A DNA stretch of 58,780 nt from an uncultured Gammaproteobacteria bacterium (GTDB taxonomy: Bacteria; Pseudomonadota; Gammaproteobacteria; JAGOUU01): the NCBI GenBank assembly GCA_964353115.1, contig CAYGUI010000003.1:1-58780 (forward strand), read 5' to 3'. The notes below the pieces were generated by a model, which was not told where the DNA came from, searched no databases, and saw only the letters and a program-made list of their open reading frames with translations. Position numbers and translations under genes: made by a program. Of this stretch, positions 7,101 through 41,627 are shown one piece after another (position 1 is the stretch's first letter; each line of letters starts with the position of its first letter).

Positions 7101-7176
7101 GTCCCCATCGTCTAGAGGCCTAGGACATCGCCCTTTCACGGCGGCAACAGGGGTTCGAATCCCCTTGGGGACGCCA
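7101..7176 (+). tRNA. tRNA-Glu(TTC)
   Basis: GTCCCC/GGGGAC acceptor stem, CTTTCAC anticodon loop, GTTCGAA, encoded CCA. Confidence 0.97.
7129..7176 (+). repeat. attL core (48-bp direct repeat)
   Basis: Identical to 41580-41627. Confidence 0.95.
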
Positions 7177-7243
7177 TTTTTCTTTATTAAAATCAAGAAG
7201 ATGGCGTTTGCAGCTCAAGTCTCTTAAATTTTCGTTCATTTTA

Positions 7244-7260
7244 GGGTGCAAATGGGGTGC
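7244..7260 (+). promoter_or_regulatory. Putative integrase arm-type site (left)
   Basis: GGGTGCAAATGGGGTGC; 16/17 match to 41438-41454. Confidence 0.65.
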
Positions 7261-7341
7261 ATTTTTTTGAATATAATTTAAATCTAATGCTATTTAATCA
7301 TTATCTGATATAATTTTATCAAACATCACAAGGTAGTTAGG

Positions 7342-8031
7342 ATGCATGATAAGGACGTAACCAAAATTATTTTTCTTTCAATGTTATTGGCTTTTATCGT
7401 CAATACTTCGTGTTTTGCAGGAAGTAAATTATTTCAGCTTGGTCATTTGTACATATCGGCAGGTTCTTTTATCCATCCGCTATCGTATTTAATAGTTTCG
7501 CTTGTCACTATTGGCTATGGTATTAATTTTGCTAAAAAAATAATATTATTTTCTAGTTTATTTAATTTAGGTTCAGCGTTATTTCTTGTCATTATGTCGC
7601 ATGTTTCAGGTGCTGAAATATTTAATGTACAAAATAATAATTATGATCAGGTAATGGGAGTGACTGGTTCAATACTAATATTTTCTTCTATAGCCTATTA
7701 TTGTTCTGAAATGCTCAATGCCAAGTTATTAAATTATTTTAGTTCGCGATTATTTTCATCAAATTCATTTTTGATCGCTTTACTTTCAACATCTGCAGCA
7801 ATTATTTTGGATACGTTATTTATGATTCCTGTGATGGCCAAAAGTGCGCAATATAATTTTTATATAATATTGTATAAAGTTTTATCACTAATAATAATAA
7901 AAATATGCTTTGAGGCATTAATACTAACTCTATTACCATCTTGCCTTAATTTCATACGTAAGGATGATGTATTATTAAATAGTTCACAAAGAATTAGTTC
8001 GATAAAATATCAGGAGTTGCTTAATGATTAG
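7342..8031 (+). CDS. VUT/YhhQ (queuosine-precursor transporter) family membrane protein
   Basis: Multi-TM; AG.F.HP.SYL......YG...A, SSIAY..SE..N, ST..A..LDT patterns. Confidence 0.75.
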   Translation: MHDKDVTKIIFLSMLLAFIVNTSCFAGSKLFQLGHLYISAGSFIHPLSYLIVSLVTIGYGINFAKKIILFSSLFNLGSALFLVIMSHVSGAEIFNVQNNNYDQVMGVTGSILIFSSIAYYCSEMLNAKLLNYFSSRLFSSNSFLIALLSTSAAIILDTLFMIPVMAKSAQYNFYIILYKVLSLIIIKICFEALILTLLPSCLNFIRKDDVLLNSSQRISSIKYQELLND

Positions 8032-8740
8032 TGCAGTAGAGCGGGGCGCAAAATACTTTAGTTCAATACAAAATTTCCCGCGTGGTACAGGGCGTATTGC
8101 ATTTACTAATCTTAAAGAATTATTATTGCCGCGAGTTTCTGGTAAACAAGCTTTAGATTTTGGTTGTGGGGCAGGGCGTTCAAGTGCAATCTTAAAAGCA
8201 TTAGGGTTTGATGTTTTAGGTGTTGATATTGATCTAAACTCAGTAAAGCTTGCGAAGGAGTCTGATCCTCTTGGTAGTTATATTAATACAGAAGATTTTT
8301 TCAAAGATCACCAAAAAGATAAGTTTGATTTTATATTTTTATCATTTGTCTTAATGGAGCTTAAGGGTAAAGAGCAAATTTCAGATTTATTAAACAGCCT
8401 TATACCTTTTATGCATTCAAAAACACTCGTTTGTGTGATATGTACATCAGAATATTTTTACCAAGGAACATGGGTGAACTGTGATGTACAGCATGATGAA
8501 AATAGAAATTTAAAATCTGGAGATTTAGCTAAAGTTCATTTACCACAGTACGATGCGATAATTCATGACTATTTTTGGCGCGATAAGGATTATAAAGAAT
8601 GTTTTGCAGTATCTGGTTTAAATCTAGAGTTAGAGTCTCGCCCACTTGCAGATATGCAGTCAGATCCATTAAATTGGAAAGATGAGATAACAAAAGCACC
8701 ATTTGTACAATATTTATTAAGACCACATGCAACTATTTAA
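8024..8740 (+). CDS. Class I SAM-dependent methyltransferase
   Basis: ALDFGCGAG motif I, GVD, FDFI. Confidence 0.85.
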   Translation: MISAVERGAKYFSSIQNFPRGTGRIAFTNLKELLLPRVSGKQALDFGCGAGRSSAILKALGFDVLGVDIDLNSVKLAKESDPLGSYINTEDFFKDHQKDKFDFIFLSFVLMELKGKEQISDLLNSLIPFMHSKTLVCVICTSEYFYQGTWVNCDVQHDENRNLKSGDLAKVHLPQYDAIIHDYFWRDKDYKECFAVSGLNLELESRPLADMQSDPLNWKDEITKAPFVQYLLRPHATI

Positions 8741-9179
8741 GCGTAAAAAATATAGCGCTAAATTTATTGTAGAAATTATTGATTTTAATAAATCATTGTT
8801 CAGAGTTCAGACATTGTATAGCCGTGCACATGCTGACAAGATGTTGTTAGATAATGTGTTAAATAATAATTTTTTGTTAAATAATATTTTGCCAGAGCAA
8901 AGTTGTGTTGTGGGTATTTTAGCTGGTTTTAAGCGTAAGTATTTGTCTGAAAATTTGGAATTTTTTGATAAAGTTTCTGGTGTCCGCGAATATAGCCTAT
9001 TTCGATCAAATGTTGTTTATATTTTAGAGACAGAATTAGAGTTAGAAGATCTTTGTACCACACGAAAATTGATTAATCAATTACACCCTGTGGCGGCATT
9101 ATATTTAGGATTTGAGTTTGGTCGTAGCTTACTTAGAAAAAAGACTAATAATATTATTCCTTTTTTACGTATTATTTAA
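8727..9179 (+). CDS. Hypothetical protein with internal duplication
   Basis: Overlaps the methyltransferase; LLNNILPEQSCVVG and LINQLHPVAALYLG look like a repeated unit. Confidence 0.6.
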   Translation: MQLFKRKKYSAKFIVEIIDFNKSLFRVQTLYSRAHADKMLLDNVLNNNFLLNNILPEQSCVVGILAGFKRKYLSENLEFFDKVSGVREYSLFRSNVVYILETELELEDLCTTRKLINQLHPVAALYLGFEFGRSLLRKKTNNIIPFLRII

Positions 9180-9837
9180 CAATCTGCATTATCATTGTCC
9201 CAATAATAGTCATTTTATCTGATTCAAAACTAACGGCACCAGTCTCAGATGCAATAGGCTGCAAAATAGGTTGTGGATTATCAATTAAAAATTCGCGCAA
9301 AGAAAATCCATTATCAAATTTAACCAATACAGTATCTCCATCGCGAGGATGCACGGTATTATCAATAATTAATAAACACCCGTGTTTAAATCTTTTACCA
9401 AGTGCAGTACCAGTTTGAATAGCAATAGATTTATTTGAAATTGAAGTATGTTTACCGCTGTATACAGCTTGCCATTTGTGCCAATTATCTGGCGATAGAT
9501 CATCTAAGTTTCCTATATTGTTTAATTCTTCCAGTAAAAAAATTGGAACACTGATTAAGGCCGCGTTTGTGGTTTTTTGATTCGTGTTATCTGTTAAATG
9601 CTGGGTTAATAAATCATCAGTTGTAACATTAAAGTGCTGCGCTAAAAGGCAGAGTAGTGATGTTCGGCATTCTGTATCTCCGTTTACAATGCGTGAGAGC
9701 GTCATAAAAGGAATTTCTAAAACTTTAGATAATTTATTTACAGTTAAATTATTTTTCTGCAATAAATATTTCAGATTATTTGTAAACGTATTTTGTTCGG
9801 CAGTAGCTTGTTGCTGGTTTAAAATTTTAATCACCAC
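9172..9837 (-). CDS. XRE HTH + S24-like regulator
   Basis: N-terminal HTH_3 (NLKYLL...LSRIVNG); C-terminal LexA/CI-like fold lacking catalytic Ser/Lys. Confidence 0.8.
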   Translation of the reverse strand: MVIKILNQQQATAEQNTFTNNLKYLLQKNNLTVNKLSKVLEIPFMTLSRIVNGDTECRTSLLCLLAQHFNVTTDDLLTQHLTDNTNQKTTNAALISVPIFLLEELNNIGNLDDLSPDNWHKWQAVYSGKHTSISNKSIAIQTGTALGKRFKHGCLLIIDNTVHPRDGDTVLVKFDNGFSLREFLIDNPQPILQPIASETGAVSFESDKMTIIGTMIMQIVK

Positions 9838-10000: not shown

Positions 10001-10282
10001 ATGAGCGCATTAGCACTAAAAATTGAAGATAATAAAATTTTTGCTAAAAGCCTAAAGGCTTATCAGATTAATCATTCACAAAATTTTGATGATTTTAAAG
10101 TTAAAAAAAATGAAATTATAATTGTTGAATGTTGTGACCAATTTTTTGTTGATGGTTATTATTTAGTTAATTCTCGGGAAACAGGAAATTTTGTTGTTTT
10201 TGTAAACAATAAAGAAGTTGTTTTTAATTCTGGCGTAGGGGAATTTAAAGTTCTAGGTTTTTTAGCTGCACGTAATTTATAA
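10001..10282 (+). CDS. Hypothetical protein
   Basis: GGAG RBS; divergent from the XRE regulator. Confidence 0.55.
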   Translation: MSALALKIEDNKIFAKSLKAYQINHSQNFDDFKVKKNEIIIVECCDQFFVDGYYLVNSRETGNFVVFVNNKEVVFNSGVGEFKVLGFLAARNL

Positions 10283-10314
10283 TTCGGACTAGGATTTAAT
10301 GCAAAAGGTGTTGT

Positions 10315-11655
10315 ATGAGTATTGCAAAGGAAAAAGTAGAAAATTTTCTAAATGAAGTAGAATTGTTTTTTACTGAAAATAATGTTCGAGATGAGTTTTT
10401 ACTATCTGCCGTTAATCATTCACTAAATTTACTAGAGCAACAGCTCAAAAAAGGATTTTTTAGTGGGAGTTATGAGTTATTAGGAAAAATTCGAAGTTTA
10501 CGCGAAAAAATTAATTCAGATATCCTACCACAACCATTACCATTTCTAGCCAAAGGATCACAAAAAGAAAAAGAACTATTAATTAGCGAAGCTATTGCAT
10601 TTAATGCCGCAATGGAAGATCTTAGTACGCAATATAATTTCCAAAACAAAGTTTCTGGAGCTGGCTTTTTAAGTGATAAAAAGCGGTTTGGCAGAAAAAG
10701 ATCGCAGTCATGGCATTTAATGACTCGTGGTTTAGGTCTTTTCCAATGTTTCGGTGGTGCAACTCAAGCTGTAGTAGGTGTTGCAGGAGGAATTGCTTCT
10801 TTTGAGACAGGGGTAGGGCCGGTGTTGGCGGCTGCTTTTTCAACTATGGGAGTTGATAATGCTGTAGCTGGTTGTTCTGCTGCTTGGACTGGTGAATATC
10901 AAAAAACTAAAGTTAATAGAGGTTTTCATGGTTTAGGTCTTAGTGATACTCAATCTGATGTTGCGGAGTTAATTGCTAATTTAGGATTTTTCTGGGGACC
11001 AACATTATTTGAGAGGGGACTGCAATCTTCTAAAAACCTTTATTTAGGAAGAAAGGTTGTCGTTGGTATTGATTATAGTAATAAGCCGGCTTTAAGCTTT
11101 GTAAAACAGCATAAAAACGAGGTGCTTAGGAGAACTTCTCACATTAGAGAAAAGAAAATAATTAGTCTTAAAAAATTCGGCGCAGATGATAGTAAGAGAA
11201 TTCGTAGTATTGCTGCAAAAAATATACGAGAAGCGAGAAAAATATTAATAAGCGCTAAAGTTCCTAGAAAGAGTAGAAATGAGATTATTCGCTCTTTTGA
11301 TTTAGAAACTTTTCGTGTTGTTAGGACTCCAATTTCAGAAATTATGTTTAGAACTTTTGGTGATAAAGGGTCTTACTTAGAGGGTCGCTATGCTACTAGA
11401 TCTATATTGCCAAATCAGACTGACAGAATTATAAAATTAGCATTGCCTGAAAATTCTGCAACAAGATTAGGAGAGGTAGGTGTTCCAAAGTTTAGTGTGG
11501 TATTTGAAGGTAAAATAGCTCCACAAACAAATTTGACCTCTGGTCTAAGAGGCGGTGAAAATCAAGTATTTTTGACTGGCCCATTGGAAAAATATTCTTT
11601 TAAAGAAGTTTTAATGCCTAGAGCTGTCGAAAGTGTTAAATTAAAAATGAGGTAA
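10315..11655 (+). CDS. Candidate polymorphic toxin (DUF4225-like hydrophobic region + TNT/ART-like C-terminus)
   Basis: Gly/Ala-rich GATQAVVGVAGG segment; C-terminal R..G...G.Y.T, LALP.N.A, G.IAPQ, GG..Q. Confidence 0.6.
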   Translation: MSIAKEKVENFLNEVELFFTENNVRDEFLLSAVNHSLNLLEQQLKKGFFSGSYELLGKIRSLREKINSDILPQPLPFLAKGSQKEKELLISEAIAFNAAMEDLSTQYNFQNKVSGAGFLSDKKRFGRKRSQSWHLMTRGLGLFQCFGGATQAVVGVAGGIASFETGVGPVLAAAFSTMGVDNAVAGCSAAWTGEYQKTKVNRGFHGLGLSDTQSDVAELIANLGFFWGPTLFERGLQSSKNLYLGRKVVVGIDYSNKPALSFVKQHKNEVLRRTSHIREKKIISLKKFGADDSKRIRSIAAKNIREARKILISAKVPRKSRNEIIRSFDLETFRVVRTPISEIMFRTFGDKGSYLEGRYATRSILPNQTDRIIKLALPENSATRLGEVGVPKFSVVFEGKIAPQTNLTSGLRGGENQVFLTGPLEKYSFKEVLMPRAVESVKLKMR

Positions 11656-11656
11656 A

Positions 11657-11941
11657 ATGAATAGCAGAGATAGTTTAAAGAAAATTCTGGATGAAAATAT
11701 AGAGGCACTTCGTTTTGGCTTAACTAAGGATACCCTTAACTGGTATATTTATCATCATCTTTTAGAGTATAGAAAAACTTTAATTTCAAGTAATGATCAT
11801 ATTGATTTAGATAGAGCTGCAAGTAAGTTCGGAATGTTTTGCACAGAAAGTATGGATTGGGATACTCCAGAATACAGAAAGTGGATAGAAATATCTGAAA
11901 TTGGCGATAAAATTAGCAGGAGAGAAAGAAGTAAAGAGTAG
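11657..11941 (+). CDS. Candidate immunity protein
   Basis: 94-aa helical ORF starting 1 bp after the toxin stop; GAGG RBS. Confidence 0.55.
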   Translation: MNSRDSLKKILDENIEALRFGLTKDTLNWYIYHHLLEYRKTLISSNDHIDLDRAASKFGMFCTESMDWDTPEYRKWIEISEIGDKISRRERSKE

Positions 11942-12072
11942 CCGCTTTGATTTTTTTCATTTTTCGAATCCGCAAAGCGGAAGAGAAGAATCATCGCGCA
12001 CATGATGATCTGATAGAAACTACAATAGTTTTTAGAGGATTATATGATACACTATCAAATCAAGTTATTTAA

Positions 12073-12849
12073 GTGATTTTAATTATGCGCATTTTTATGG
12101 TTTCTAGAGATATGTTAGCTCGAAGGAGCCTTTTTTCAAGAACATGGATTGATAGTATTGGTATGAGAAGTAATATATTAGAAGAATGGAATCCTGATAC
12201 TTGCACAGCTAGATATAAAGAATCTTATGCAGCTATCTTTGATAATATTAACGATGCAAGATTAGCAGCTGGATCTTGGTCAGAGAATTATGCTACCTTG
12301 AATTTTTCTGCTTCAGCAATTATTTTTGAGCTTGAAGTGGAGGATTCCGTATGGCAAGAATTTAAGGATGCTGCTGCTGATAAATTTAGTCTTGAGCGTG
12401 ATTGCCTGTGGATGCAATTGTCGGCTTTATGGACAAAACCTCCTTCCGTTATTGAGCATAGAAAAGGTCTGACTGGAAAAGATATATCTAAAAAATTTCT
12501 AGATAGATCGGAGTTGATTCAAGCAGAAATAGTTAATAGAGGGGAAAGTATAAATCATCGAACAAGCAGTTTTTATGCTGTTGGATGTATAGGGCTTCCA
12601 GGTAAAACTTATGATCTACGTCCTAGATGGTATGAAAGATTTTTAGCTTATATAATTAAATTATGTAAGGGAAAATCTGCTCCTTGCACTCAAAGTGACC
12701 CACTTGACACTGTGGAGGATGGGTGTGGTAATGTTAATGGCGTCGGCACCGCCGCGCCGCCACATAGTTTTTGCGGCGCAAGCTCTAGAGAAAGTCGTGC
12801 TATAGCTGTTGGTCTAGCATCCACTAGTCCTAGTAAATTAGAGACATAA
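12073..12849 (+). CDS. Hypothetical protein
   Basis: 258-aa ORF (start may be ATG 12085); low-complexity C-terminal tail. Confidence 0.6.
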   Translation: MILIMRIFMVSRDMLARRSLFSRTWIDSIGMRSNILEEWNPDTCTARYKESYAAIFDNINDARLAAGSWSENYATLNFSASAIIFELEVEDSVWQEFKDAAADKFSLERDCLWMQLSALWTKPPSVIEHRKGLTGKDISKKFLDRSELIQAEIVNRGESINHRTSSFYAVGCIGLPGKTYDLRPRWYERFLAYIIKLCKGKSAPCTQSDPLDTVEDGCGNVNGVGTAAPPHSFCGASSRESRAIAVGLASTSPSKLET

Positions 12850-14259
12850 TGCTGATATTTTCTGAAAATAATTACTAGATTTTTTAGCTAAAAAAGCTTC
12901 GCCTAATTTTAGACTTTTAATTTCATCAGGATGAACCGCAAACTCCCTAACACTCTTCACCGACCCAACATTCTCCATTTTATTATTCAGTTGCGCCGTA
13001 ACTTCTAAATTTTCGCGAGTTCCAATAACATTAGCCAAAGTCTCTGCATCATTAGGATTATTTTGGCGTTGGATAATATAATTATTACAGTTATTTAAAA
13101 TTTGACCTAATAAGTCTTCACCGCCTTTTTTACTAATATCAGAGAGAGACTGCGTGGCTAAAACAGCATGCACACCAGCACCACGGCCTTGATTAATTAG
13201 ATTTACAATTTGGTCGCCTGCAAAGACTGAGAATTCATCAAAGATGGTATAGATTTTTTTCTTATTTTTATTAGCTATAGATAACTGCTGTGAGATTAAA
13301 GATTTCAGATCATTAATAACTAATTTACCAAGTAATTCAGCATAAGCAGGGAACTGCAGTGGCTGCAGACAAAAATAAACTACAGCATTCTCATCAAAAG
13401 CCTGGTTTAAATTTAAAACTTCACCACTTTTGCAATCAAACAAATGCCCAATCTCGCTATTCGCTAAATTTTCTATCTCAAAAATTAAACTTTGAATGTT
13501 TTTTTCTTGTTCACTAAGCTTCGCTGTTGTTTTTATAAGTTCATCATTATTGGAATTACGAGCTAAGAGAGATAAATTTGGTCCAGATATATATTGAGCT
13601 AATGTTTTTATATCAACATTAATATTACATTGCTCCAAGACTTTAAATACAGTCTGTAAATATCCTTCAGAAATTTTACGATAATGATCTTCTGACCATT
13701 CTCGTAGCTCAATAATTCGATCTTTCTTGGCGGTATAGCCGCCAGTGGCTAGTGGGTTGTATTTACAGCTGTCACCAACCATAGAAAATAAATAAAATTT
13801 ACGATTATGTTTTGCACAAATAACTCTTACTTTATTTGCTAATTCTAAATCACCTTTGCCATCAACATAAAATAGTGGCAAATCTCGTGCTACAGCGCTA
13901 TGAACTATATTAAAAATAGTTGTGGTCTTGCCAGAGCCTGTGGTGCCTACGGCTAACGTATGCAAATTTGCATCTTTATCATATAAAACAGCTTGTTCAC
14001 CGGTGTTCTTGTCGACTCCTAAAATACTACCGTTGTTTATTACAGATGATTTTATTTTATTTAATTTTTTATATATTTTTTTAGCTGATAATTCTCGGGT
14101 TTTATTTTCTAGATTTCCATGCTTTAATTTTCTAAGTCTCTTCTTTAATTTATTTTTATTTAAAATAGCAATGCTGGTATAAACTGTAAAAAGACTAATG
14201 CTTGCCGCAAATAATTTTTCAGGATTAGCCAATATTTGTTTTAGCATGTGTATCCTCAA
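12838..14259 (-). CDS. Type IV coupling protein (TraD/VirD4/MobB-like)
   Basis: Walker A GTTGSGKT, VDGKGD, Walker B IFDEF, QGRGAG, ATQSLSD. Confidence 0.9.
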   Translation of the reverse strand: MRIHMLKQILANPEKLFAASISLFTVYTSIAILNKNKLKKRLRKLKHGNLENKTRELSAKKIYKKLNKIKSSVINNGSILGVDKNTGEQAVLYDKDANLHTLAVGTTGSGKTTTIFNIVHSAVARDLPLFYVDGKGDLELANKVRVICAKHNRKFYLFSMVGDSCKYNPLATGGYTAKKDRIIELREWSEDHYRKISEGYLQTVFKVLEQCNINVDIKTLAQYISGPNLSLLARNSNNDELIKTTAKLSEQEKNIQSLIFEIENLANSEIGHLFDCKSGEVLNLNQAFDENAVVYFCLQPLQFPAYAELLGKLVINDLKSLISQQLSIANKNKKKIYTIFDEFSVFAGDQIVNLINQGRGAGVHAVLATQSLSDISKKGGEDLLGQILNNCNNYIIQRQNNPNDAETLANVIGTRENLEVTAQLNNKMENVGSVKSVREFAVHPDEIKSLKLGEAFLAKKSSNYFQKISALCL

Positions 14260-14866
14260 AAAAAGTATCTAAATTGAAAACTTTAAAAAAATTAGCTTTT
14301 TCAGAGTAGGGCGCTAAAAACTTTAGGACTTCTTTGCTATCACTAAAATACCAAACTTCTTTGTATTTAGGAGTCTGCAAATAGTGCTGAAAGATTTTAT
14401 CAAAACGCGCCTTACTCTTACGAGTTAACTCTAGCTCTAAGGCGATATTTTGACTGTTTAGATCTAATATGGCATCTGGGGTATGGTTTTGTGTACCCCA
14501 TGAATTACGAGCAAAATTATGGCGAATTTCGCGCTCTGTTGTAACTTTATAATTTAAATTATGTTGTAGATCTAAAATTAGATCAGTTAATTTTATATCA
14601 TGATTATAATTCATGATATTTATCCGTCGTAGAGCTGGTAAATTTTCGTCTGCTAGAGCTGCTCCTCGGGGCGTTAATTTGTATGCACCTTTTTGTCGGT
14701 GGAAAATCATTTCATGTAAAAGATATTTATTAACTACCAATCGATTAATCATTTCATAGCCTGCTGATTTCTTAATTCCTAAAAATTTAGTAACTTGATT
14801 GATCGTTACAAACCCAAATTTATTAATCCATTTTAATAATTTTATATCCCTTTCCGTTACTCTCAT
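14225..14866 (-). CDS. Replication-relaxation family / MOBC-like relaxase
   Basis: MRVTERD winged-helix start, HD motif, PD...ALELELTRKSKARF PD-(D/E)xK motif; start moved to ATG 14866 (AGGGG RBS). Confidence 0.8.
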   Translation of the reverse strand: MRVTERDIKLLKWINKFGFVTINQVTKFLGIKKSAGYEMINRLVVNKYLLHEMIFHRQKGAYKLTPRGAALADENLPALRRINIMNYNHDIKLTDLILDLQHNLNYKVTTEREIRHNFARNSWGTQNHTPDAILDLNSQNIALELELTRKSKARFDKIFQHYLQTPKYKEVWYFSDSKEVLKFLAPYSEKANFFKVFNLDTFFEDTHAKTNIG

Positions 14867-14927
14867 TTTCTTCTTCCCCTTCTTTTTTCTTTTCTTATTT
14901 ATATCTCCACACTCCACACTCGCCCGA

Positions 14928-14974
14928 TACCTGACCACATTCTCGAAACCATGTTGAGAGGGTGTGGTCAGGTA
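14928..14974. other. Candidate oriT inverted repeat
   Basis: TACCTGACCACA (14928-14939) / TGTGGTCAGGTA (14963-14974), perfect 12-bp IR upstream of the relaxase. Confidence 0.55.
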
Positions 14975-17656: not shown

Positions 17657-17664
17657 ATTTTCTC

Positions 17665-19238: not shown

Positions 19239-19246
19239 GCTAACTC

Positions 19247-29185: not shown

Positions 29186-29192
29186 AGATTTT

Positions 29193-30401: not shown

Positions 30402-30760
30402 TATTCTACGATTAATCTCCCGCGATACATTCCCATTTGACAAGTAAATTCATATTCACCAGGCTTATCGATTTTTACATCAATTTGATGAATTTTATCG
30501 ACAGGGAGTTCCGCACAGATATCTAAATCTTTAAATACAACTACAGAAGAGCAGGGTGATTTATCTTGCCGTAAAAATTTTAGGTGCAAAGTCTGCCCAG
30601 CTTTGACGTTTATAACAGCAGGGGAGTAAATACCGTCGTGAACTTTTATTTCTATAGTATCGCCAGATATTGTGGTAGCTTGTGGTTTTTTAATTAAAAA
30701 CCACCAAATTATTAATCCTATTAAGACTAATCCAGATAAATTTACAATTATAGTAATCAT
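30401..30760 (-). CDS. Cupredoxin-domain protein
   Basis: N-terminal TM, YSP, C...V, FTCQMGMYRG. Confidence 0.85.
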   Translation of the reverse strand: MITIIVNLSGLVLIGLIIWWFLIKKPQATTISGDTIEIKVHDGIYSPAVINVKAGQTLHLKFLRQDKSPCSSVVVFKDLDICAELPVDKIHQIDVKIDKPGEYEFTCQMGMYRGRLIVE

Positions 30761-30761
30761 T

Positions 30762-32984: not shown

Positions 32985-33038
32985 GATTTAGATTGTTATT
33001 TGGTATGGTGTGATTATAGCATTAGACTTAATGAATAT

Positions 33039-34172: not shown

Positions 34173-34270
34173 AAAGGAACTCTCCTAGTTAATACTAGTA
34201 ATTTAGTCTATATTAGCCCTCTCTGTCAGGATAGTTGTCGTGTTGATTATCAAAAAGGAAGTATCAAAGT

Positions 34271-34765
34271 ATGGCCTCATATACTGTTATATTTAGAGAA
34301 GAAATTATAAAAAAAGTACTATCATCAGATAGAGAAGATAGTATAAGATCTATATCTGAAAAATCTGGCGTCACAACTCGAACAATACATCGCTGGGTTA
34401 CGCGCCACTTAAATCAATTACCATTTAATCAGCATTTATCTGATCTACGAAAAATAGATGCTGTTTTAGAAAATATAAATATTCCTATTGAAGTAAAATC
34501 TATGTTTTGTCGAGAGCATGGGATTATGCTCGAAGATCTAAATGAGTGGGAATTAGATTTAAAAAATAGTTTATCTGGAGGAGCAGTGAGTAAATTCGAA
34601 TACGGTAAATTAAATGCTGAAAAAAAAGAGTTAGAAAAATTATTAGCATCAAAAGAAAAGGAATTAACCGTAAAAGATAAAGCTTTAGCTGAAGCTGCTG
34701 CGTTACTAGACCTTCAAAAAAAAATCCAAAAATTATTGGAAAAAGAGGGTGTAAATTTAAGCTAG
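34271..34765 (+). CDS. IS3-family OrfA
   Basis: HTH, FCREHG, KDKALAEAAALL..QKK; A9 slippery run at 34716-34724. Confidence 0.85.
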   Translation: MASYTVIFREEIIKKVLSSDREDSIRSISEKSGVTTRTIHRWVTRHLNQLPFNQHLSDLRKIDAVLENINIPIEVKSMFCREHGIMLEDLNEWELDLKNSLSGGAVSKFEYGKLNAEKKELEKLLASKEKELTVKDKALAEAAALLDLQKKIQKLLEKEGVNLS

Positions 34766-35769
34766 AGACAAAGGAAGAAATAATAAAATTAATATCAGAA
34801 GCTAAATACAAGGGTGCTAGACTATATAAAATTTGTGAAGCAATTGGAATATCACTTCGAACTTATCAAAGATGGATTAAAAAATCTGATAAGTCTGACA
34901 AAAGGAGGGGAGCTTTAAAAAATACACCAAACAAGCTTAGTAATCAGGAAAAATCTCAGGTGTTAAAAATAGTAAATATGCCTGAGTTTGCGTCACTACC
35001 ACCTAGCCAGATAGTGCCTATTCTTGCTGATAGAGGCGAGTATATTTGCTCAGAAAGCACTTTTTATCGCATTCTTAGGCAAGAAAGAATGCAACATCAT
35101 AGAGGTCGCTCTAAGCCTCCACAAAAAAGACCATGCCCAAGGCTTACGGCATCAAGCCCCAATCAAGTTTACAGTTGGGGCATCACTTTTTTACCAACTG
35201 AAATAAAAGGTAAGTTTTATTATTTATACTTGTTTATTGATATTTATAGTCGCTATATTGTTGGTTGGCATGTAAATGATTATCAAGATAATAAGGTTTC
35301 AGCTAAAGTTTTCCGACAAATATGTGAATCTAATAATATTGAGAAGTCACAGCTTACGTTGCATTCTGATAATGGCGGGGCAATGAAAGGCGCAACAATG
35401 CTCGCTACTATGCAAAATTTAGGGGTAATAAAATCATTTTCCAGGCCTGCTACAAGCAATGATAATCCATTTTCAGAAGCATTATTCAAAACGTTAAAAT
35501 ATTGTCCCAGCTACCCAAGAAAACCGTTTAAAGATATTGAACAAGCTGAGCAATGGATGACAAAATTTACTCGATGGTACAATTATGAGCATAGGCATAG
35601 CGGAATAAACTTCGTTACGCCACACCAGCGGCATACAGGTTTGGAGCATGAGATTTTGAGTAAAAGAAGTCAAGTATATAATGAAGCTAGAGCCAAAAAC
35701 CCTAAAAGATGGAATTGTAAAACTAGATGCTGGGAACCTGTTGAGAAGGTCCATATAAATCCTGCTTAG
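34717..35769 (+). CDS. IS3-family OrfB (DDE), reached by -1 frameshift; first catalytic Asp appears replaced
   Basis: Frame open from the A9 run; SWGIT in place of SWDIT; LHSDNG; DNPFSE.LFKTLKY. Confidence 0.82.
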   Translation, partial: KKNPKIIGKRGCKFKLETKEEIIKLISEAKYKGARLYKICEAIGISLRTYQRWIKKSDKSDKRRGALKNTPNKLSNQEKSQVLKIVNMPEFASLPPSQIVPILADRGEYICSESTFYRILRQERMQHHRGRSKPPQKRPCPRLTASSPNQVYSWGITFLPTEIKGKFYYLYLFIDIYSRYIVGWHVNDYQDNKVSAKVFRQICESNNIEKSQLTLHSDNGGAMKGATMLATMQNLGVIKSFSRPATSNDNPFSEALFKTLKYCPSYPRKPFKDIEQAEQWMTKFTRWYNYEHRHSGINFVTPHQRHTGLEHEILSKRSQVYNEARAKNPKRWNCKTRCWEPVEKVHINPA

Positions 35770-35796
35770 AGGCGACAACTATGTTGACAACCACCG

Positions 35797-36093
35797 GTTG
35801 AAGTTTCAGTCCCCAATATAGAGCCTTATATGCATCATACACCCGTTTTGGTAGATGATATTATTTCCACTGCGCGTACAATGATTGAAGCGGTTAAGCA
35901 TTTTAAATCGACTAAAATTAAGGCTCCAGTTTGTATTGGTGTACATGGAATCTTTGCAGGAGATGCGTATGATAGTTTGATAAAAGCTGGAGCGGGGCAG
36001 ATTATTACATGCAATACGATTAGTCACTTTAGCAATGCTATAGATTTATCCACTATACTTAGTGGTAGTATTGAAAAACAATTAGGAGAATAG
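35797..36093 (+). pseudogene. 5'-truncated ribose-phosphate pyrophosphokinase-like gene
   Basis: VEVSVP...PVLVDDIISTARTM PRPP motif, HGIFAG, TCNTI; N-terminal part absent at the IS junction. Confidence 0.8.
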
Positions 36094-36097
36094 TCAT

Positions 36098-36397
36098 ATG
36101 ATGATGTTTTTATTAGATTTAGCATTTGCTAATGAGTTAATTGCAATGGCCGTTGGAGTTGCTCTTTTGGTTTGGGCTTTTCGTAATGACGGTGCAGGAG
36201 TGAAACTAGCTAGAGTTTTTGGTTATATAATTACTATAGCGGCTGTTTTAGGAGCTTTGTGTACTAGTTATTTTGGCTCCATGTACATGTTCAAAGGGTA
36301 CTTTAATAAGCCTATGATGATGAATATGCAAATGATGAATAAACAAATGATGCAGCAGCATAAACCAATGATGATGCAGGACCAACATAGGCGATAA
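36098..36397 (+). CDS. Small membrane protein with Met-rich tail
   Basis: Two TMs, PMMMNMQMM tail; GGAG RBS. Confidence 0.65.
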   Translation: MMMFLLDLAFANELIAMAVGVALLVWAFRNDGAGVKLARVFGYIITIAAVLGALCTSYFGSMYMFKGYFNKPMMMNMQMMNKQMMQQHKPMMMQDQHRR

Positions 36398-36399
36398 AT

Positions 36400-36618
36400 A
36401 TGCCAACGATTGTTAAATTACTATGGGTTATATTATTCCTAATACTGGGTTATACCTTGTGGATGGAGCACTATGACCATATAGTTGCCTATTTACCAAC
36501 GCTGCTATTAATAGTTGTACTTTTATTATGCCCATTGATGCATATTTTTATGCATCGTGGGCATAATGATCATAAAAATAAAAATGATCAGGATAGTGAC
36601 AAGAATTATAGCAAATAA
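36400..36618 (+). CDS. DUF2933-like membrane protein
   Basis: EH..H, LLCPLMHIFMHRGH. Confidence 0.85.
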   Translation: MPTIVKLLWVILFLILGYTLWMEHYDHIVAYLPTLLLIVVLLLCPLMHIFMHRGHNDHKNKNDQDSDKNYSK

Positions 36619-36631
36619 AAAGGGATAATAT

Positions 36632-37276
36632 ATGCATCATGGGGAAGCCGGCTATGGCATGTGGTTTGTAGTTTTAATTAATTCCGCTATATTTATCATT
36701 TTTGCTTTTAGTTTTTATCACCCCAAAACAAAACGTGATTGGCATAGTTTTGGCGCCTTTTCAGCATTTATTGTTGCGTTATTTACAGAAATGTATGGTT
36801 TCCCGTTGACAATTTATTTAGCGTCAGGATGGCTAGAATCTAAATTTCCAGGATTGAATATTTTTTCGCACGAGGCGGGTCATTTATGGCACACGATATT
36901 TGGATTAAAAGGCAATCCACATTTTGATATTTTTCACATATTAAGTTATATATTTATTTTAGGTGGTTTTTTTCTATTATCTTCCGCATGGAAGGTATTA
37001 TTTTTCGCTCAAAAAAATCATGTTTTAGCTACTACTGGACCTTACGCAAGAATTCGCCATCCGCAATATGTAGCTTTTATTTTGGTAATGATAGGATTTT
37101 TATTGCAGTGGCCAACATTATTAACATTCATTATGTTTCCAATTTTAACTTATGTTTATGTGCGGCTAGCAAAAAGTGAGGAGGGAGAGGCTATAGTAGA
37201 ATTTGGAGATGTATATAAAAATTATATGCAGAATGTACCAGCATTTATTCCGCATGTAAGTGGAAAAGGGGCGTAA
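36632..37276 (+). CDS. Isoprenylcysteine carboxyl methyltransferase/PEMT-family protein
   Basis: EMYGFPLTIY, TTGPYARIRHPQY, EE, Y...VPAFIP. Confidence 0.88.
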   Translation: MHHGEAGYGMWFVVLINSAIFIIFAFSFYHPKTKRDWHSFGAFSAFIVALFTEMYGFPLTIYLASGWLESKFPGLNIFSHEAGHLWHTIFGLKGNPHFDIFHILSYIFILGGFFLLSSAWKVLFFAQKNHVLATTGPYARIRHPQYVAFILVMIGFLLQWPTLLTFIMFPILTYVYVRLAKSEEGEAIVEFGDVYKNYMQNVPAFIPHVSGKGA

Positions 37277-37278
37277 TC

Positions 37279-37935
37279 ATGTGCTATTCAGCGACAGCTA
37301 GCTTTACAACAGCGGTATTATTAATTCCAGCAGGGACATATGCAGTTTATCAGTCAATAAAAATTAATAAGAAGTATTTATTGTTATCCTTAATTCCATT
37401 TTTCTTTGCAATTCAGCAGGCTTTTGAAGGAATGGTTTGGCTTGAAATTTCAAATAAAAATTTAATTATTCATTTTTACGCTGCAGGATTTTTATTTTTT
37501 GCATATTGGTTTTGGTTAGTGTGGATGGCTCTTAGTGCTTACGCAATAGAAGGGGATAAGCATAAACGCATATTTCAAATTTTTATGGTTTTAGGATTTA
37601 TTTATGGTGCCATAATTTATTTACCTATGGTGTTTTATCATTACAATAGTTTATTCATTCATGCCAAGCAAAACTCAATTCATTATCAAACTCCGGCATT
37701 ATTTTATGTAAATATTCCAATGTTTGTGCTTAGGTTAATATATGTATCTTTAATTGTTATACCTGTGTTGATGGTAAGTAATAGGTTGATACAGATTTGG
37801 GCAATTGTATTAGCGATTACTTTTTTTATAGCAGTTTATTATTATGAATATGCTTTTACTTCAATATGGTGTTATTTTGGTGCGGTTTTAGCTCTGGGAC
37901 TTTCATATATTGCATATAAAATGCCTAAAAAATAA
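37279..37935 (+). CDS. Membrane protein (DUF6629-like)
   Basis: MCYSATASF start, QQAFEGMVW, SIWCYF. Confidence 0.7.
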   Translation: MCYSATASFTTAVLLIPAGTYAVYQSIKINKKYLLLSLIPFFFAIQQAFEGMVWLEISNKNLIIHFYAAGFLFFAYWFWLVWMALSAYAIEGDKHKRIFQIFMVLGFIYGAIIYLPMVFYHYNSLFIHAKQNSIHYQTPALFYVNIPMFVLRLIYVSLIVIPVLMVSNRLIQIWAIVLAITFFIAVYYYEYAFTSIWCYFGAVLALGLSYIAYKMPKK

Positions 37936-37946
37936 GGAACGTTAAT

Positions 37947-38885
37947 ATGAATCATGAACATAAATCTAACTCAGGACATCTTTTTCATGGTATGGAAGCA
38001 GATGCTCGCGCTCTTAAGATTACCGGGTGGTTAACTGGAATTTATTTTTTAATTGAATTATTTTTGGGATTTTATTCTGGCTCTGTTGCTGTAATTTCCG
38101 ATGCTTTTCATACTTTTTCTGCTGTTGGAGGGGTTTTAATAGCATTAGTTGCCAATCGTATTTCTATGCGCCCATCTGGTAAAGTAAAAACATTTGGAAT
38201 GATGCGCTCTGAAATTATTGGAGCATTGCTAAATGGTCTTTTTTTGCTATTGATGTCTTTTTATATTTTATGGATGGGGTTTCATCGTCTGCAGCAAAGC
38301 ATTGAGCTGCCTACTGGTATCATGTATCTTTCAGCAGTAGGAGGATTGATAACAGAGTTTATTTCTATCGGAGTTATGTGGAAAAGCGTAAAAGGTAATC
38401 TTAATATGCAGGGGGCATTCTGGCATATTTTACAAACCTTTGTAGGAAGTATTATCATTATTATCGCTGCCGTTGTAATTAATTTGACCGGGTGGTATCC
38501 CATTGATCCTATTCTAGGTATGGTATTTGGATTAGTTCTTTTTTGGGCATCATGGGGAATTATAAGGGATAGCTTTAATATCCTTTTAGAGTCATCACCA
38601 AAAGATGTTGATATTAGTGACGTAACAACAAAATTACAAAACATTGATGGTGTGAAAAATGTGCATCATACACATGCATGGACTTTAACCTCAGGCAAAA
38701 ACTTATTTATGACGCATGTCAAAATTGATGATAATGCAGATTATGAGGTAATTTTGGATAAATCTAATAAGATATTGGTAGATGATTTTGGTTTTTATTT
38801 TACGACGTTGCAAGTAGAAAAAATCTGTCATTCATCACAAGAAGCCGAATTTATAGATTATTCTAAGCATGGAGATAATGGTTAA
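37947..38885 (+). CDS. Cation diffusion facilitator (CzcD/ZitB-like)
   Basis: SDAFH, TFG..R.E, NLN..GAFWH, IDPIL, H.HAW. Confidence 0.9.
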   Translation: MNHEHKSNSGHLFHGMEADARALKITGWLTGIYFLIELFLGFYSGSVAVISDAFHTFSAVGGVLIALVANRISMRPSGKVKTFGMMRSEIIGALLNGLFLLLMSFYILWMGFHRLQQSIELPTGIMYLSAVGGLITEFISIGVMWKSVKGNLNMQGAFWHILQTFVGSIIIIIAAVVINLTGWYPIDPILGMVFGLVLFWASWGIIRDSFNILLESSPKDVDISDVTTKLQNIDGVKNVHHTHAWTLTSGKNLFMTHVKIDDNADYEVILDKSNKILVDDFGFYFTTLQVEKICHSSQEAEFIDYSKHGDNG

Positions 38886-39334
38886 TGATTGGTCAGCTAA
38901 TAATAATATCCTTATCATCCATCGTAGCTATTTTTATTACTACAGGTTTATTTTATGAATGCATGTGCCTTATTTCACGTGTTGTAGCAAATACATCAAT
39001 AAGGCCGCGCTTTCTTATGTTTATTACTATTACTGGTATTTTTATTGCTCATGCAGCGGCAGTTTTTGCTTATGCTGTTGTGTATTGGGTACTGATACAT
39101 TTTGCTGGTTTTTCAGATTTAGCAGGTAATACTCAAGACCATTTTCCTACGTATTTATATTTTTCTATTACAACCTATTCCTCTTTAGGTATAGGGGATG
39201 TCTTTCCGCGTGATGCCTTACGTTTTTTAACAGGAGTTGAAGCTATTAATGGTTTAATACTTATTACTTGGTCAGCAGCTTTTACTTATTTTTCTATTGA
39301 AAAAATGAGAGAAGGGCATAACAATCATTTGTGA
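38885..39334 (+). CDS. Ion_trans_2 (KcsA-like) small channel-family protein
   Basis: LYFSITTYSSLGIGDVFP, R....EA..G. Confidence 0.8.
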   Translation: MIGQLIIISLSSIVAIFITTGLFYECMCLISRVVANTSIRPRFLMFITITGIFIAHAAAVFAYAVVYWVLIHFAGFSDLAGNTQDHFPTYLYFSITTYSSLGIGDVFPRDALRFLTGVEAINGLILITWSAAFTYFSIEKMREGHNNHL

Positions 39335-39361
39335 AAACAAATGTTTTAAAATGCATAAATA

Positions 39362-39874
39362 TTAATCTTTATGTGGATCACTGTGTTCATGCTTATGTCC
39401 TGGGCCTTCTGCTTTGGGTAATGACTGCACTCCAATACCATGTTTAAATACCACTTCAGCTCCATACCACCCTGTAATCATTGTTAAAATAAATACCGCT
39501 ATCATTGTAGAAACAAAAAGAAATTTAGGCTTTTTATCTTTATAAAATATAACTAAAGACCACAGCGCTGTACTTAAAATAGCAATAAACGTTGCAATAG
39601 CCCAATTTCTATGGATAGTCATTGCTGCATGTGATGGAGTGTCGTGAATCACTGTGTAATAAGCGATAAATCCAGCGATTATAGTTGCAATGGATGCTAT
39701 GGAGCCAAACCAGAGTGACCAGCGCGCGACAATGGATAGTTCATCACTAATTTTAAAATTATTAAATAAGTATGTAAATAAATAACATGCCGTTGCAGTG
39801 CTGATTAATGCAACAGTAAAGTGTACATACAAGGGATGAAAATTTGGGATAATGTTAATATTCATTTGAAGCAC
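39362..39874 (-). CDS. DUF2231-like membrane protein
   Basis: NFHP..VHF, H, TGWYGA.VF.HG.GV, His-rich tail; start may be ATG 39865. Confidence 0.8.
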   Translation of the reverse strand: MLQMNINIIPNFHPLYVHFTVALISTATACYLFTYLFNNFKISDELSIVARWSLWFGSIASIATIIAGFIAYYTVIHDTPSHAAMTIHRNWAIATFIAILSTALWSLVIFYKDKKPKFLFVSTMIAVFILTMITGWYGAEVVFKHGIGVQSLPKAEGPGHKHEHSDPHKD

Positions 39875-40029: not shown

Positions 40030-40230
40030 ATGGATAAAGAAACAATTTTAGAATCAGAAATAATTTGCCCCAAATGTGGGCATAAAAAAATTGAAACAAT
40101 GCCTACTGATTCGTGCCAATGGTTTTATCAGTGTGAAAAGTGTAGCGCGATATTAAAACCTGAGGCAGGGGATTGTTGTGTCTTTTGCTCTTACGGTTCT
40201 ATTAAGTGTCCATCTAGGCAAAATGGATAG
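40030..40230 (+). CDS. GDCCVxC-domain small Cys-rich protein
   Basis: CPKCG, CEKC, GDCCVFCSYG..KCP. Confidence 0.88.
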   Translation: MDKETILESEIICPKCGHKKIETMPTDSCQWFYQCEKCSAILKPEAGDCCVFCSYGSIKCPSRQNG

Positions 40231-40249
40231 TGATAAAAGTTAAAATAAA

Positions 40250-41413
40250 TTAGCTTATTAACACTAATTTCTCAACAGCCCTTGCCTTATGCTCTGGCGC
40301 CAAATGCGCGTATCTTAACGTCATTTTAATATCCGAATGACCTAATAATTCTCTCACGGTATTTAAATCAACTCCAGCCATCACTAATTTACTTGCAAAA
40401 TGATGGCGCATGTCGTGCCAGCGGAAATCCTTAATTTCAGCTTGTTCTAAAAAAGCTTTCCATTTACGCTGTACTGCAGTAATTATTTTACCGTTTGCAT
40501 GTGAAAATACTAAATTATGATGTTCATTGATTTTTTTCCAAGCTGTAAGACACTCTAAAGCCGGTTTATTTAATGGCACATGGCGTAAAACTTGGCTTTT
40601 ACCAATTATTGAAATTAATTTATTATCAAAATCGACATTAGACCAGGTAAGAGTTAATAATTCTCCGCGGCGTGCACCAGTATTAAGAGAAATAGTTATT
40701 AAAGATTCAAGGCAATCATCAAAATGATGTTCTTCTAAATAATCAGATCTATCGATACGATTTTGTTGTCGTTTAGATATAGTTTTTGATAGACGTAAAA
40801 ATTCTTCATTACTTAAATAACGCACTTTAGGTCTTCGATCAAATTTTAGTGGTTTAATCTTTTCAAAAGGGTGGTCTGTAATTACACTCCACTCTACAGC
40901 TTTGGATAATGAAGCTTTTAGAACATTTACATCACGATTTATCGTTTCTGCATGTATACCATTGTTTAATCTTTTAGAGCGCCATTTTTCTAACGTAATA
41001 TTTTTTAATTCATTAATATTTTTATTGCCGAAAAGTTCAAAGAAATGGGTTTTAAGACGTAAAATATCTTCTTTTCCATGTTTGCGATGAGCTATACGCC
41101 ATGGTGCATACGTATCTTCAATAAATTTTTTAAATGTTGTAGTAGGGGGCTTATCTAGTTTTTTATGTGGATCATTTCCTTGGGCATGATCAAATAATAT
41201 CTGCCTTGCTAAATCACGTGCTTGATTAGGAGATATAGCATCCGCTCTACCAATGTTAATTTTTCGGCCGCGCTTAAATTCGCATAGATAAACCATTTTT
41301 CCAGTAGGGTTTACACGCAAGATAAAGCCTGTTAATTTAGAATCACGAACTTCATATCTATTTTCTTTTGGCGATAATTTATTTATTAGTGAGTTTGTTA
41401 TTAAATCTCTCAT
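40250..41413 (-). CDS. int: Tyrosine integrase with N-terminal arm-binding domain
   Basis: TGARRGE, GK, HDMRH, LGHSD, RYAH catalytic set; next to attR. Confidence 0.95.
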   Translation of the reverse strand: MRDLITNSLINKLSPKENRYEVRDSKLTGFILRVNPTGKMVYLCEFKRGRKINIGRADAISPNQARDLARQILFDHAQGNDPHKKLDKPPTTTFKKFIEDTYAPWRIAHRKHGKEDILRLKTHFFELFGNKNINELKNITLEKWRSKRLNNGIHAETINRDVNVLKASLSKAVEWSVITDHPFEKIKPLKFDRRPKVRYLSNEEFLRLSKTISKRQQNRIDRSDYLEEHHFDDCLESLITISLNTGARRGELLTLTWSNVDFDNKLISIIGKSQVLRHVPLNKPALECLTAWKKINEHHNLVFSHANGKIITAVQRKWKAFLEQAEIKDFRWHDMRHHFASKLVMAGVDLNTVRELLGHSDIKMTLRYAHLAPEHKARAVEKLVLIS

Positions 41414-41437
41414 AAATTTTTACGGTATTAGTTTTTG

Positions 41438-41454
41438 GGGTGCAAATAGGGTGC
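41438..41454 (+). promoter_or_regulatory. Putative integrase arm-type site (right)
   Basis: GGGTGCAAATAGGGTGC; matches 7244-7260. Confidence 0.65.
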
Positions 41455-41579
41455 TGGTGCGCTAAATTTCTATGATATTCAGTGAACAGTGAAAAATTAA
41501 AACGCATGAAAAACTCTATTAATACAGGGTATTATAACAAATATAAACAATTAAGAATAGGTGTAAATAATATATAGTG

Positions 41580-41627
41580 CGCCCTTTCACGGCGGCAACA
41601 GGGGTTCGAATCCCCTTGGGGACGCCA
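41580..41627 (+). repeat. attR core (3' 48 bp of tRNA-Glu)
   Basis: Identical to 7129-7176; no tRNA 5' half upstream. Confidence 0.95.

Follow-up and report, generated by a model that had tools for sequence, protein, structure and literature searches.

An integrative and conjugative element of an uncultured gammaproteobacterium with a probable phage-derived control cassette of the Legionella lvrR/lvrA kind

The window analysed here, a 58,780-nt stretch of DNA (contig CAYGUI010000003.1 of assembly GCA_964353115.1) from an uncultured, AT-rich gammaproteobacterium, harbors a 34,451-bp element bounded by exact att repeats. We find that this is probably an intact-looking integrative and conjugative element (ICE) inserted in a tRNA-Glu gene, with a control region that represents an immunity-plus-replication cassette of phage origin, comparable in kind to the lvrR/lvrA genes of Legionella islands, a joint reading to which we assign a probability of a little under 60%. 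The host genome (1.5 Mb in 119 contigs, 97.7% complete) belongs to a GTDB order of just 5 genomes and falls outside the Legionellales as sampled. If correct, the element would show that such a cassette passes between types of type IV secretion system (T4SS) and between DNA-processing modules, and that it has reached, outside Legionella, an unsampled lineage with a reduced genome; otherwise, it is one more metal-resistance ICE.

At the center of the control region is a repressor of the CI/LexA/LvrR type, which combines an HTH_3 with a Peptidase_S24 domain (Table 1) and whose translation displays a GDSM serine motif and a lysine downstream of it. Its gene is bracketed by two 29-nt arms that are 97% complementary (1 of 29 positions differs), each of which is a promoter/operator copy with a TACA-N8-TGTA palindrome sitting over the -10 element. 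Copy 1 overlaps the -10 of a TTGACA-18-TACATT promoter directed into the operon that begins with the gene for a 328-aa initiator candidate and continues into the trb genes, and copy 2 precedes an AlpA/excisionase (Xis)-like gene. In a metagenome locus (L059) with a 32% identical repressor, TACAA-N6-TTGTA is seen in both of the corresponding promoter regions. Because the arms bracket the repressor gene and this related locus carries a similar motif in both promoter regions, we read the palindromes as the operators of the repressor. We also considered binding of both promoters by the initiator candidate, since the core of the iteron-like repeats described below, AAATGTA, is enriched there: it is found twice in each promoter copy, and 6 of its 15 copies in the window lie within 1.4 kb. 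The promoter motifs of L059 and of L006, a locus in a metagenome-assembled genome (MAG) of Ca. Berkiella, do not track the sequence of their iterons; we therefore rejected this possibility and assigned the operators to the repressor. The window contains three TACA-N8-TGTA sites, two of which are those in the arms; the third (52145-52160) lies outside the element, within an open reading frame (ORF), and may be due to chance (at least 3 sites in 9 of 100 shuffles). The Xis-like protein, which itself gives weak family matches, is 53-68% identical to proteins encoded next to this repressor/initiator cassette in L006, L016, L056 and L059, and to the product of a gene in L152. Downstream of it, the gene for a 380-aa membrane protein contains a 21-bp tandem repeat of approximately 3 copies (26699-26775).

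The 328-aa protein, the gene for which abuts trbB, comprises an N-terminal winged helix (approximately residues 20-145), a disordered linker (148-194) and a C-terminal helical domain (194-280), as seen in an AlphaFold model based on a 26-row alignment (predicted local distance difference test score, pLDDT, of 77). Searches against the PHROG families recovered phrog_270, 'replication initiation protein', over residues 64-302 (e-value = 1.7e-14), along with phrog_9327, phrog_9474 and phrog_678. Comparison of the model with the viral models in BFVD yielded 51 matches with E<=1e-3 across both domains, the named ones among them including DnaD, a replisome organizer and a RepA-like initiator. In the PDB its best match is 4ro3 (Z-score 8.2), followed by the MDR initiator 4pta (7.8) and the DnaD N-terminal domain (6.7 and 6.2). 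The protein matched neither NCBIfam nor the Pfam families Phage_rep_O and lambda_P, and a Foldseek search of the PDB was empty at E<=1e-3. In tblastn searches, plasmids gave 2 weak matches to the N-terminal domain, none from Legionella, and phages a single weak match. The N-terminal domain is encoded in 24 IMG/VR loci; at the 23 of these for which neighbors were collected, 6 of the 45 adjoining proteins are DnaB_C helicases and 2 contain Toprim_2. Together, the sequence and model comparisons indicate a resemblance to phage replication initiators, and the protein might accordingly be predicted to function in replication.

The DNA coding for the linker of this protein contains an iteron-like array on the minus strand. 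Cores resembling ACAAATGTAC start at 24338, 24315, 24293 and 24271; beyond these are three degenerate TACAAA cores, at 24249, 24227 and 24205. These seven TACAAA-type cores recur with a phase of 22-23 bp in shifting codon frames and, therefore, do not reflect a peptide repeat. A 9-mer (allowing 1 mismatch) occurs four times, at gene positions 424, 447, 469 and 491, which none of 60 shuffles equaled. Tandem Repeats Finder also reported weak repeats over 24173-24272. Of the genes compared, the Ca. Berkiella homolog has the clearest iteron array, in which a different 11-mer is repeated five times at exactly 22 bp (10465-10565 of L006; 0 of 60 shuffles) and the encoded peptide is not repeated in register. 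The L059 homolog has 5 repeat copies at 22-23 bp (1 of 60 shuffles), and those of L011, L001 and L004 have 3 copies each at multiples of 22-23 bp, which are not significant singly. Among 23 viral homologs, 8 genes contain at least 4 copies, which 0 of 20 shuffles equaled, and 7 of these 8 have a spacing of 21-22 bp; the first 330 nt of the 23 genes never contain more than 3. Autocorrelation over offsets of 9-35 bp peaked at 22 bp for 4 of 9 genes, at 23 bp for L004, and at 24 bp for the three Legionella genes occupying the lvrA position (see below). The repeat sequence varies among relatives while its phase of about 22 bp and position in the gene remain constant, which on sequence grounds is the pattern of initiator/iteron co-evolution. 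In phage lambda the immunity/replication region comprises cI, O and P, with the ori iterons inside gene O, and the position, phase and element-specific sequence of the present array match this organization. The two systems further share an S24 repressor at divergent promoters and a two-domain initiator with a flexible linker whose coding DNA contains phased repeats, as in O/DnaD-type initiators. Unlike lambda, the element has no Cro, N or Q and no structural genes, and the operon runs on into the T4SS.

Full-length homologs of the 328-aa protein with 39-42% identity are found in L. pneumophila, Fluoribacter dumoffii, L. quateirensis and L. qingyii, two of which are named 'Vir region protein' and 'Vir protein' in UniRef. 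At 5 of 14 genome loci the homolog heads F-type tra genes (L001, L003, L004, L009 and L011); these islands, from L. qingyii, L. quateirensis and Legionellales MAGs, code for a T4SS with TraL, E, K, B, C and U, in contrast to the trb genes of the window. As in the window, an S24 repressor is divergent from the homolog in L011, the only one of these scanned for it, and an integrase 43-46% identical to that of the element is encoded 3-10 kb upstream in L001, L003, L004 and L011 (41-46% for integrases near initiator homologs across Legionellales loci). The F-type loci likewise share with the window 22-23-bp repeats in the same part of the gene. No homolog of the MobC-like protein of the element was found in 4 of the 5 F-type-island genomes searched. 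Within the GTDB genus of L. quateirensis, the protein has matches with E<=1e-8 in 21 of 64 scored genomes (2 were not scored); 3 of these matches extend over the N-terminal domain or the whole length, and the rest span only residues ~200-290, in proteins of ~294-320 aa.

These shorter proteins led to the Trb islands of Legionella. In L153 and L154, and in part in L151, we observed the order S24 repressor, 294-aa protein, 155-aa protein, CsrA and then trbB-E-F-G-I-J. This corresponds to lvrR-lvrA-lvrB-lvrC, the order given ahead of P-type T4SSs in the accessible text of PMC3864950 and PMC3218107, and we take the repressor switch and initiator candidate of the window to be the probable lvrR/lvrA counterpart; 'lvrA' in L153 is assigned from position and the published order rather than from a named record. 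The 294-aa protein in the lvrA position is 33% identical over 82 aa to the C-terminal domain of the 328-aa protein (E = 3e-11) and matches the same PHROG initiator families (phrog_270, 2.1e-13), with N-terminal domains that cannot be aligned. Its gene (L153:6004-7496, and the equivalents in L154 and L151) has an 11-mer repeated 4-5 times at steps of 12/24 bp, followed by a 30-nt run of A and T only; the 11-mer of L151 differs from that of the other Legionella-genus loci. The protein in the lvrB position of L153 matches phrog_109, 'P-like helicase loader' (6.6e-6), such that a P-like gene follows the initiator-position gene in Legionella and not in the window. With tblastn (E<=1) we found in the window no counterpart of lvrB, nor one of lvrC using two Legionella CsrA queries. 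The element's repressor, with its HTH and S24 domains and divergent orientation from the module, corresponds to LvrR through Pfam and phrog_4; it gave no pairwise tblastn match to the repressors of the Legionella loci, a likeness thus confined to the family level.

According to the accessible text of PMC3218107, PMC3864950 and PMC2859405, the Legionella islands Trb-1 to Trb-4 have in common with the window an integration of the tRNA type between flanking repeats, genes for an integrase and an AlpA-like protein, and a 'phage repressor' (S24). In both, the repressor is divergent from the gene directly heading the trb genes. They differ in the order of the trb genes (B-C-D-E-J-L-F-G-I in the window, B..E-F-G-I-J in the Legionella loci, with 26-35% identity) and in DNA processing: the Legionella loci carry a TraG-type coupling protein, a MOBP TraI and TraL, none of which has a match in the window, as against the MobC-like and TraD-like proteins of the element, which in turn have none in the Legionella Trb loci. 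The preliminary description of this stretch, made from its letters alone, stated that Trb-1 uses an IncP-like TraI, and the Legionella-genus Trb loci do carry an IncP-like TraI along with TraG; its contrast with lvrRABC is unsupported, given that the 294-aa protein of those loci shares the C-terminal domain and PHROG families. Hence, its proposal of an undescribed class of element does not hold, the described Legionella islands already pairing a control cassette of this kind with a P-type T4SS. A match to a described ICE family, which it had named as the finding that would speak against it, holds in part: there is an lvrR/lvrA counterpart, and there are neither lvrB nor lvrC and a different DNA-processing module. 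Accordingly, from its sequence the element appears to be a variant of the described Legionella islands that lacks lvrB and lvrC, has a different initiator N-terminal domain, and employs a MobC-type relaxase candidate with a TraD-like coupling protein. Legionella Trb islands with an lvrRABC module were reportedly treated by Glockner in 2008 and Lautner in 2013. In what we take to be pLPP, only a CsrA gene and TraT precede the tra genes, and no LvrA is named.

We examined 120 loci, mostly short contigs or phage-like contexts without a T4SS. The cassette, with the xis gene in tandem with a repressor divergent from the initiator, was recovered in five: the Ca. Berkiella locus L006, the metagenome loci L056 and L059, L016 and L075. 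In L059 it is followed by VirB-type genes, in L075 only the repressor and trbE were detected, and in a further locus (L066) the initiator is followed by trbB-trbC. L016 is a short contig of a genome (G001) from the same family as the host, with 42% identity in the initiator N-terminal domain, 33% in the repressor and 53% in Xis; thus, 2 of the 5 genomes in the host's order carry the cassette.

The element is delimited by a 63-nt direct repeat (7129-7191 and 41580-41642; 92% identity), the first 48 nt of which are identical (7129-7176 = 41580-41627) with a start-to-start spacing of 34,451. The left copy of this 48-nt core is the 3' end of the tRNA-Glu gene and the integrase gene adjoins the right copy, thereby supplying the recombinase and flanking att repeats of an ICE. 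The G+C content of the element (0.30-0.39) is indistinguishable from that of its flanks. Positions 5000-44000 contain 76 ORFs of at least 60 aa. Within the element, 42 remained once overlapping shadow ORFs had been set aside, and a Pfam scan of these 42 gave no match to capsid, terminase, portal or tail families; the single PHROG match to 'terminase large subunit' (1.8e-9) proved to be the P-loop of the coupling protein. Mating-pair formation is represented by TrbB, C, D, E, J, L, F, G and I together with TraF, and includes the VirB4-type ATPase. The Trb set follows the Ti/RP4 order and is of type MPF_T as judged by the agreement of Pfam, NCBIfam and PLSDB; TrbE is 32-35% identical to that of small plasmids typed MPF_T/MOBP in PLSDB, which share this gene order. 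The coupling protein, whose domains score above the Pfam cut-offs, has a single N-terminal hydrophobic segment and Walker A and Walker B motifs; its top family is the SXT-type TraD (TIGR03743; 1.3e-37, 130 bits against a cut-off of 366). In SXT/R391 elements, SetR, a CI-like S24 repressor, controls excision and transfer, and TraD is the coupling protein; SXT itself has an MPF_F T4SS, a MOBH relaxase, SetCD activators and integrates in prfC. The window shares with these a CI-like S24 repressor and SXT_TraD as the top family of its coupling protein, with a score far under the cut-off.

The relaxase candidate, for which a likely ATG start at 14866 gives 213 aa, matches NCBIfam MobC_subf (2.7e-14; 53 bits, cut-off 200) and Pfam Replic_Relax (21.1 bits, cut-off 25.3) over nearly its whole length. 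A search of 1.84 billion representatives recovered 822 relatives with E<=1e-3. Across 40 of these that were aligned, D7, H89, D131 and E146 never vary, whereas H128, E144 and K150 do so only rarely; residues of the D131, E146, H128, E144 and K150 type are ones that we take to be defining of MOBC. The AlphaFold2 model (pLDDT 94.8) combines an N-terminal winged helix-turn-helix with an alpha/beta domain, on adjacent strands of which the conserved nuclease-like residues fall. Fold searches were swamped by the winged helix, and the nuclease-fold matches of the whole protein in Foldseek are weak (Bax1, 4.7e-3; FokI, 9.3e-3). MOBC relaxases, such as CloDF13 MobC and pAD1 TraX, are restriction-endonuclease-like. 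The candidate resembles them in its winged helix followed by an alpha/beta domain, its conserved D...E-x-E...K, and the location of its gene next to a hairpin; it is unlike curated members in its scores and in its length. The hairpin, a candidate origin of transfer (oriT), folds as DNA with -16.1 kcal/mol (z = -4.2), a value that 0 of 200 shuffles attained, and the MobC-type protein would be predicted to nick there. These results confirm what the preliminary description had observed and support its interpretation in part: an att-bounded element of 34,451 bp free of capsid, terminase and tail genes; a gene order, strands included, running from coupling protein and relaxase through the inverted repeat, traF-trbIGFLJEDCB and initiator to the divergent repressor, xis-like gene and membrane protein; a lambdoid switch in which a CI/LexA-type repressor lies between two promoter sites facing the initiator-trb operon and the xis gene; and a phage-type initiator, in so far as the 328-aa protein resembles those of phages. 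The iteron-like array inside the gene for this protein is an addition of the present analysis. Its MOBC-like relaxase stands as a MobC/Replic_Relax-like protein under the curated cut-offs.

Several observations weigh against the reading of the control region as an immunity-plus-replication cassette in an intact ICE. The 328-aa protein has no Pfam match, a profile search of PDB sequences with it was empty at E<=10, and Z-scores of up to 8.2 are also attained by generic winged-helix regulators. No helicase, primase or loader of the element was detected with Pfam, by a PHROG loader match, or by tblastn with the Legionella lvrB-position protein (E<=1). With respect to the array, the repeat statistics come from mononucleotide shuffles of a 255-nt stretch picked post hoc, the per-gene autocorrelation rises clearly above the shuffle null in L006 alone, and the 21-bp phase of viral genes is a multiple of 3, compatible with peptide repeats. 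The phenotype given for the lvr genes in the accessible text of PMC3864950, which cites Lautner 2013 for it, is regulation of excision, not replication. No recognised Ala-Gly cleavage site is apparent in the translated repressor, and the relaxase candidate scores under both curated cut-offs. Finally, four sequencing runs from one study carry 15-18% of the sampled words and yield short, low-depth contigs that cover flank and element; none of these contigs crosses an att site or shows a junction. The assembly may itself derive from these runs.

Some of these points are shared by an unlikely, though substantial, alternative, namely that the 328-aa LvrA-like protein is an exapted DNA-binding regulator that activates or times excision and T4SS expression, the repeats being regulatory or titration sites or relics of a phage origin, and the circle replicating, if at all, by a relaxase-driven rolling circle. 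This would fit its place as the first gene of the T4SS operon, the many MarR/ArsR-type regulators among the best PDB matches of its winged helix, the lack of a loader or helicase, the AAATGTA cores in both promoter copies, and the description of the lvr genes in the accessible text of PMC3864950 as a regulatory module affecting excision. It does not readily account for the phage members of the family lying in replication modules beside DnaB_C helicases, for a repeat that changes in sequence among relatives and keeps its ~22-bp phase and position, for the match of the next gene in Legionella to P-like helicase loaders, or for promoter motifs in L059 and L006 that do not track the iterons. We regard it as improbable that the element is a decayed, immobile island, with exact att repeats that attest to recent arrival only and a relaxase-like protein that is a nuclease-fold DNA-binding protein incapable of nicking: the sub-threshold relaxase match, the short coupling protein (473 aa), the IS3 element and gene fragment in the cargo and the lack of junction reads in the short low-depth contigs of the four runs would agree with decay, but all ten trb/traF genes and those for the coupling protein, integrase, Xis and repressor are uninterrupted and normal in length, the att copies agree at all 48 nt, the promoter copies differ at 1 of 29 positions, and the relaxase family keeps its invariant D, H, D and E across 40 sequences, 15 of which match Replic_Relax (E<=1e-3). 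Least probable, by a small margin, is that array and protein serve to maintain the excised form or to confer incompatibility on it (by centromere-like pairing, handcuffing or the exclusion of related elements) rather than to initiate replication, for while the repeat sequence is element-specific and phased repeats bound by winged helices also define plasmid centromeres and the handcuffing sites of iteron plasmids, the 42 ORFs contain no ParA/ParM-type ATPase by Pfam, and the families that the protein matches are those of initiators and primosomal proteins rather than ParB/ParR.

Under the preferred reading, that of an immunity-plus-replication cassette, the repressor would silence both promoters in the integrated element, and its loss would switch them on together. 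The host genome encodes RecA, and a Peptidase_S24 family search found no LexA and only 2 members of this family in the genome, both on the element; as RecA is present and these are the sole S24 proteins, RecA-assisted self-cleavage of the repressor is possible. Xis and the integrase would then excise the circle, and the initiator candidate would bind the intragenic iterons and start plasmid-like replication of the circle with the host helicase, the element itself encoding no loader. Transfer of a copy would fall to the T4SS together with the TraD-like coupling protein and to the MobC-type relaxase, which would act at the candidate hairpin oriT.

A more tentative extension, which we consider somewhat short of an even bet, is that the lvr module as a whole and its relative in the window descend from a domesticated lambdoid immunity-plus-replication cassette, with a CI-like repressor, an O-like initiator with intragenic iterons and, in Legionella, a P-like loader, so that the islands would be conditional plasmids with theta-type replication upon derepression. 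Such a scenario would account for reports that Legionella islands exist as multi-copy episomal forms, and would imply a widespread cassette coupled to P-type, VirB-type and F-type T4SSs. If the 328-aa protein and its Legionella counterparts are genuine initiators whose origins are intragenic, the long-unexplained lvrA and lvrB would gain a concrete, testable function. A phage-derived replicon under a single repressor would cross the boundary between ICE and plasmid, with excision, amplification and mating coupled by two operator copies. To interpret lvrA and lvrB as O/P-like replicon genes, with an origin inside the gene, may be novel: the Legionella lvrA literature consulted, the primary lvh, Trb-1 and csrT papers excepted, does not state that LvrA is an initiator, and a prior description is possible. 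LvrA is termed the CsrA homolog in the accessible text of PMC2859405.

Table 1. Features of the element and their coordinates in the window
Feature	Position	Strand	Evidence
tRNA-Glu(ttc); its 3' 48 nt (7129-7176) = attL	7101..7176	+	ARAGORN; repeat search
Left-end cargo: Vut_1 transporter, TehB-like methyltransferase, 150-aa unknown	7342..9179	+	Pfam
Second HTH_3 + Peptidase_S24 repressor	9172..9837	-	Pfam; PHROG transcriptional repressor families
Four genes (93, 446, 94, 258 aa), divergent from second repressor	10001..12849	+	ORFs
Type IV coupling protein, 473 aa	12838..14259	-	Pfam TrwB_AAD_bind, TraG-D_C, T4SS-DNA_transf
MobC/Replic_Relax-type relaxase candidate	14225..14938	-	NCBIfam, Pfam
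Hairpin inverted repeat (47 nt), candidate oriT, relaxase-traF intergenic region	14928..14974		Repeat search, folding
P-type (MPF_T) T4SS operon: traF (S26 peptidase), trbI, trbG, trbF, trbL, trbJ, trbE, trbD, trbC, trbB	15079..23776	-	Pfam; TrbJ TIGR02780
LvrA-like, phage-O/DnaD-like initiator candidate, 328 aa, first gene of trb operon	23776..24762	-	PHROG, AlphaFold2, BFVD, PDB, homologs
Iteron-like array in linker-coding DNA of initiator candidate gene	24195..24342	-	k-mer search, shuffles
Promoter/operator copy 1, TACA-N8-TGTA at 24809-24824	24797..24825		Repeat and motif searches
HTH_3 + Peptidase_S24 (CI/LexA/LvrR-type) repressor, 219 aa	24855..25514	+	Pfam; phrog_4 2.5e-31
Promoter/operator copy 2, TACA-N8-TGTA at 25553-25568, upstream of xis-like gene	25552..25580		Repeat and motif searches
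AlpA/excisionase-like HTH protein, 65 aa	25607..25804	+	Weak: phrog_66 0.0054, HTH_17 0.021
Membrane protein, 380 aa, internal 21-bp tandem repeat	25885..27027	+	ORF scan, repeat search
Cargo: multicopper oxidase, cupredoxin, Cu-type P-type ATPase, FAD oxidoreductase fragment	27095..39874		Pfam
Further cargo: IS3-family element (34271-35769), ICMT-like methyltransferase, CDF transporter, K-channel-like protein, DUF2231	27095..39874		Pfam
Tyrosine integrase, Arm-DNA-bind_3 N-terminus	40250..41413	-	Pfam Phage_integrase 7.5e-32; phrog_1 2.1e-63
attR, exact 48-nt copy of tRNA-Glu 3' end	41580..41627	+	Repeat search; sequence read

The remaining genes of the element constitute its cargo, the role of which, as predicted from the domains encoded, is the handling of copper and other metals. 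Within it the orfA/orfB genes of the IS3-family element lie beside a gene fragment coding for 87 aa of a phosphoribosyltransferase (34271-36093), which suggests that the IS3 insertion broke a cargo gene. Near the left end, the four genes divergent from the second repressor have no match in Pfam, PHROG or PADLOC. The 446-aa protein among them has a feature-level likeness of 0.91 to polymorphic-toxin (Ntox46/TNT) clusters, which is a lead only, and its gene is followed by the 94-aa one; the region 9172-12849 may constitute a cassette for toxin/immunity or exclusion that is controlled by a separate repressor. PADLOC assigned no defence system among 10 ORFs, namely seven without a Pfam match, the methyltransferase, the second repressor and the 380-aa membrane protein. 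Just beyond attR, a 50-nt direct repeat with 82% identity (41801-41850 and 42378-42427) has each of its copies upstream of a small minus-strand gene.

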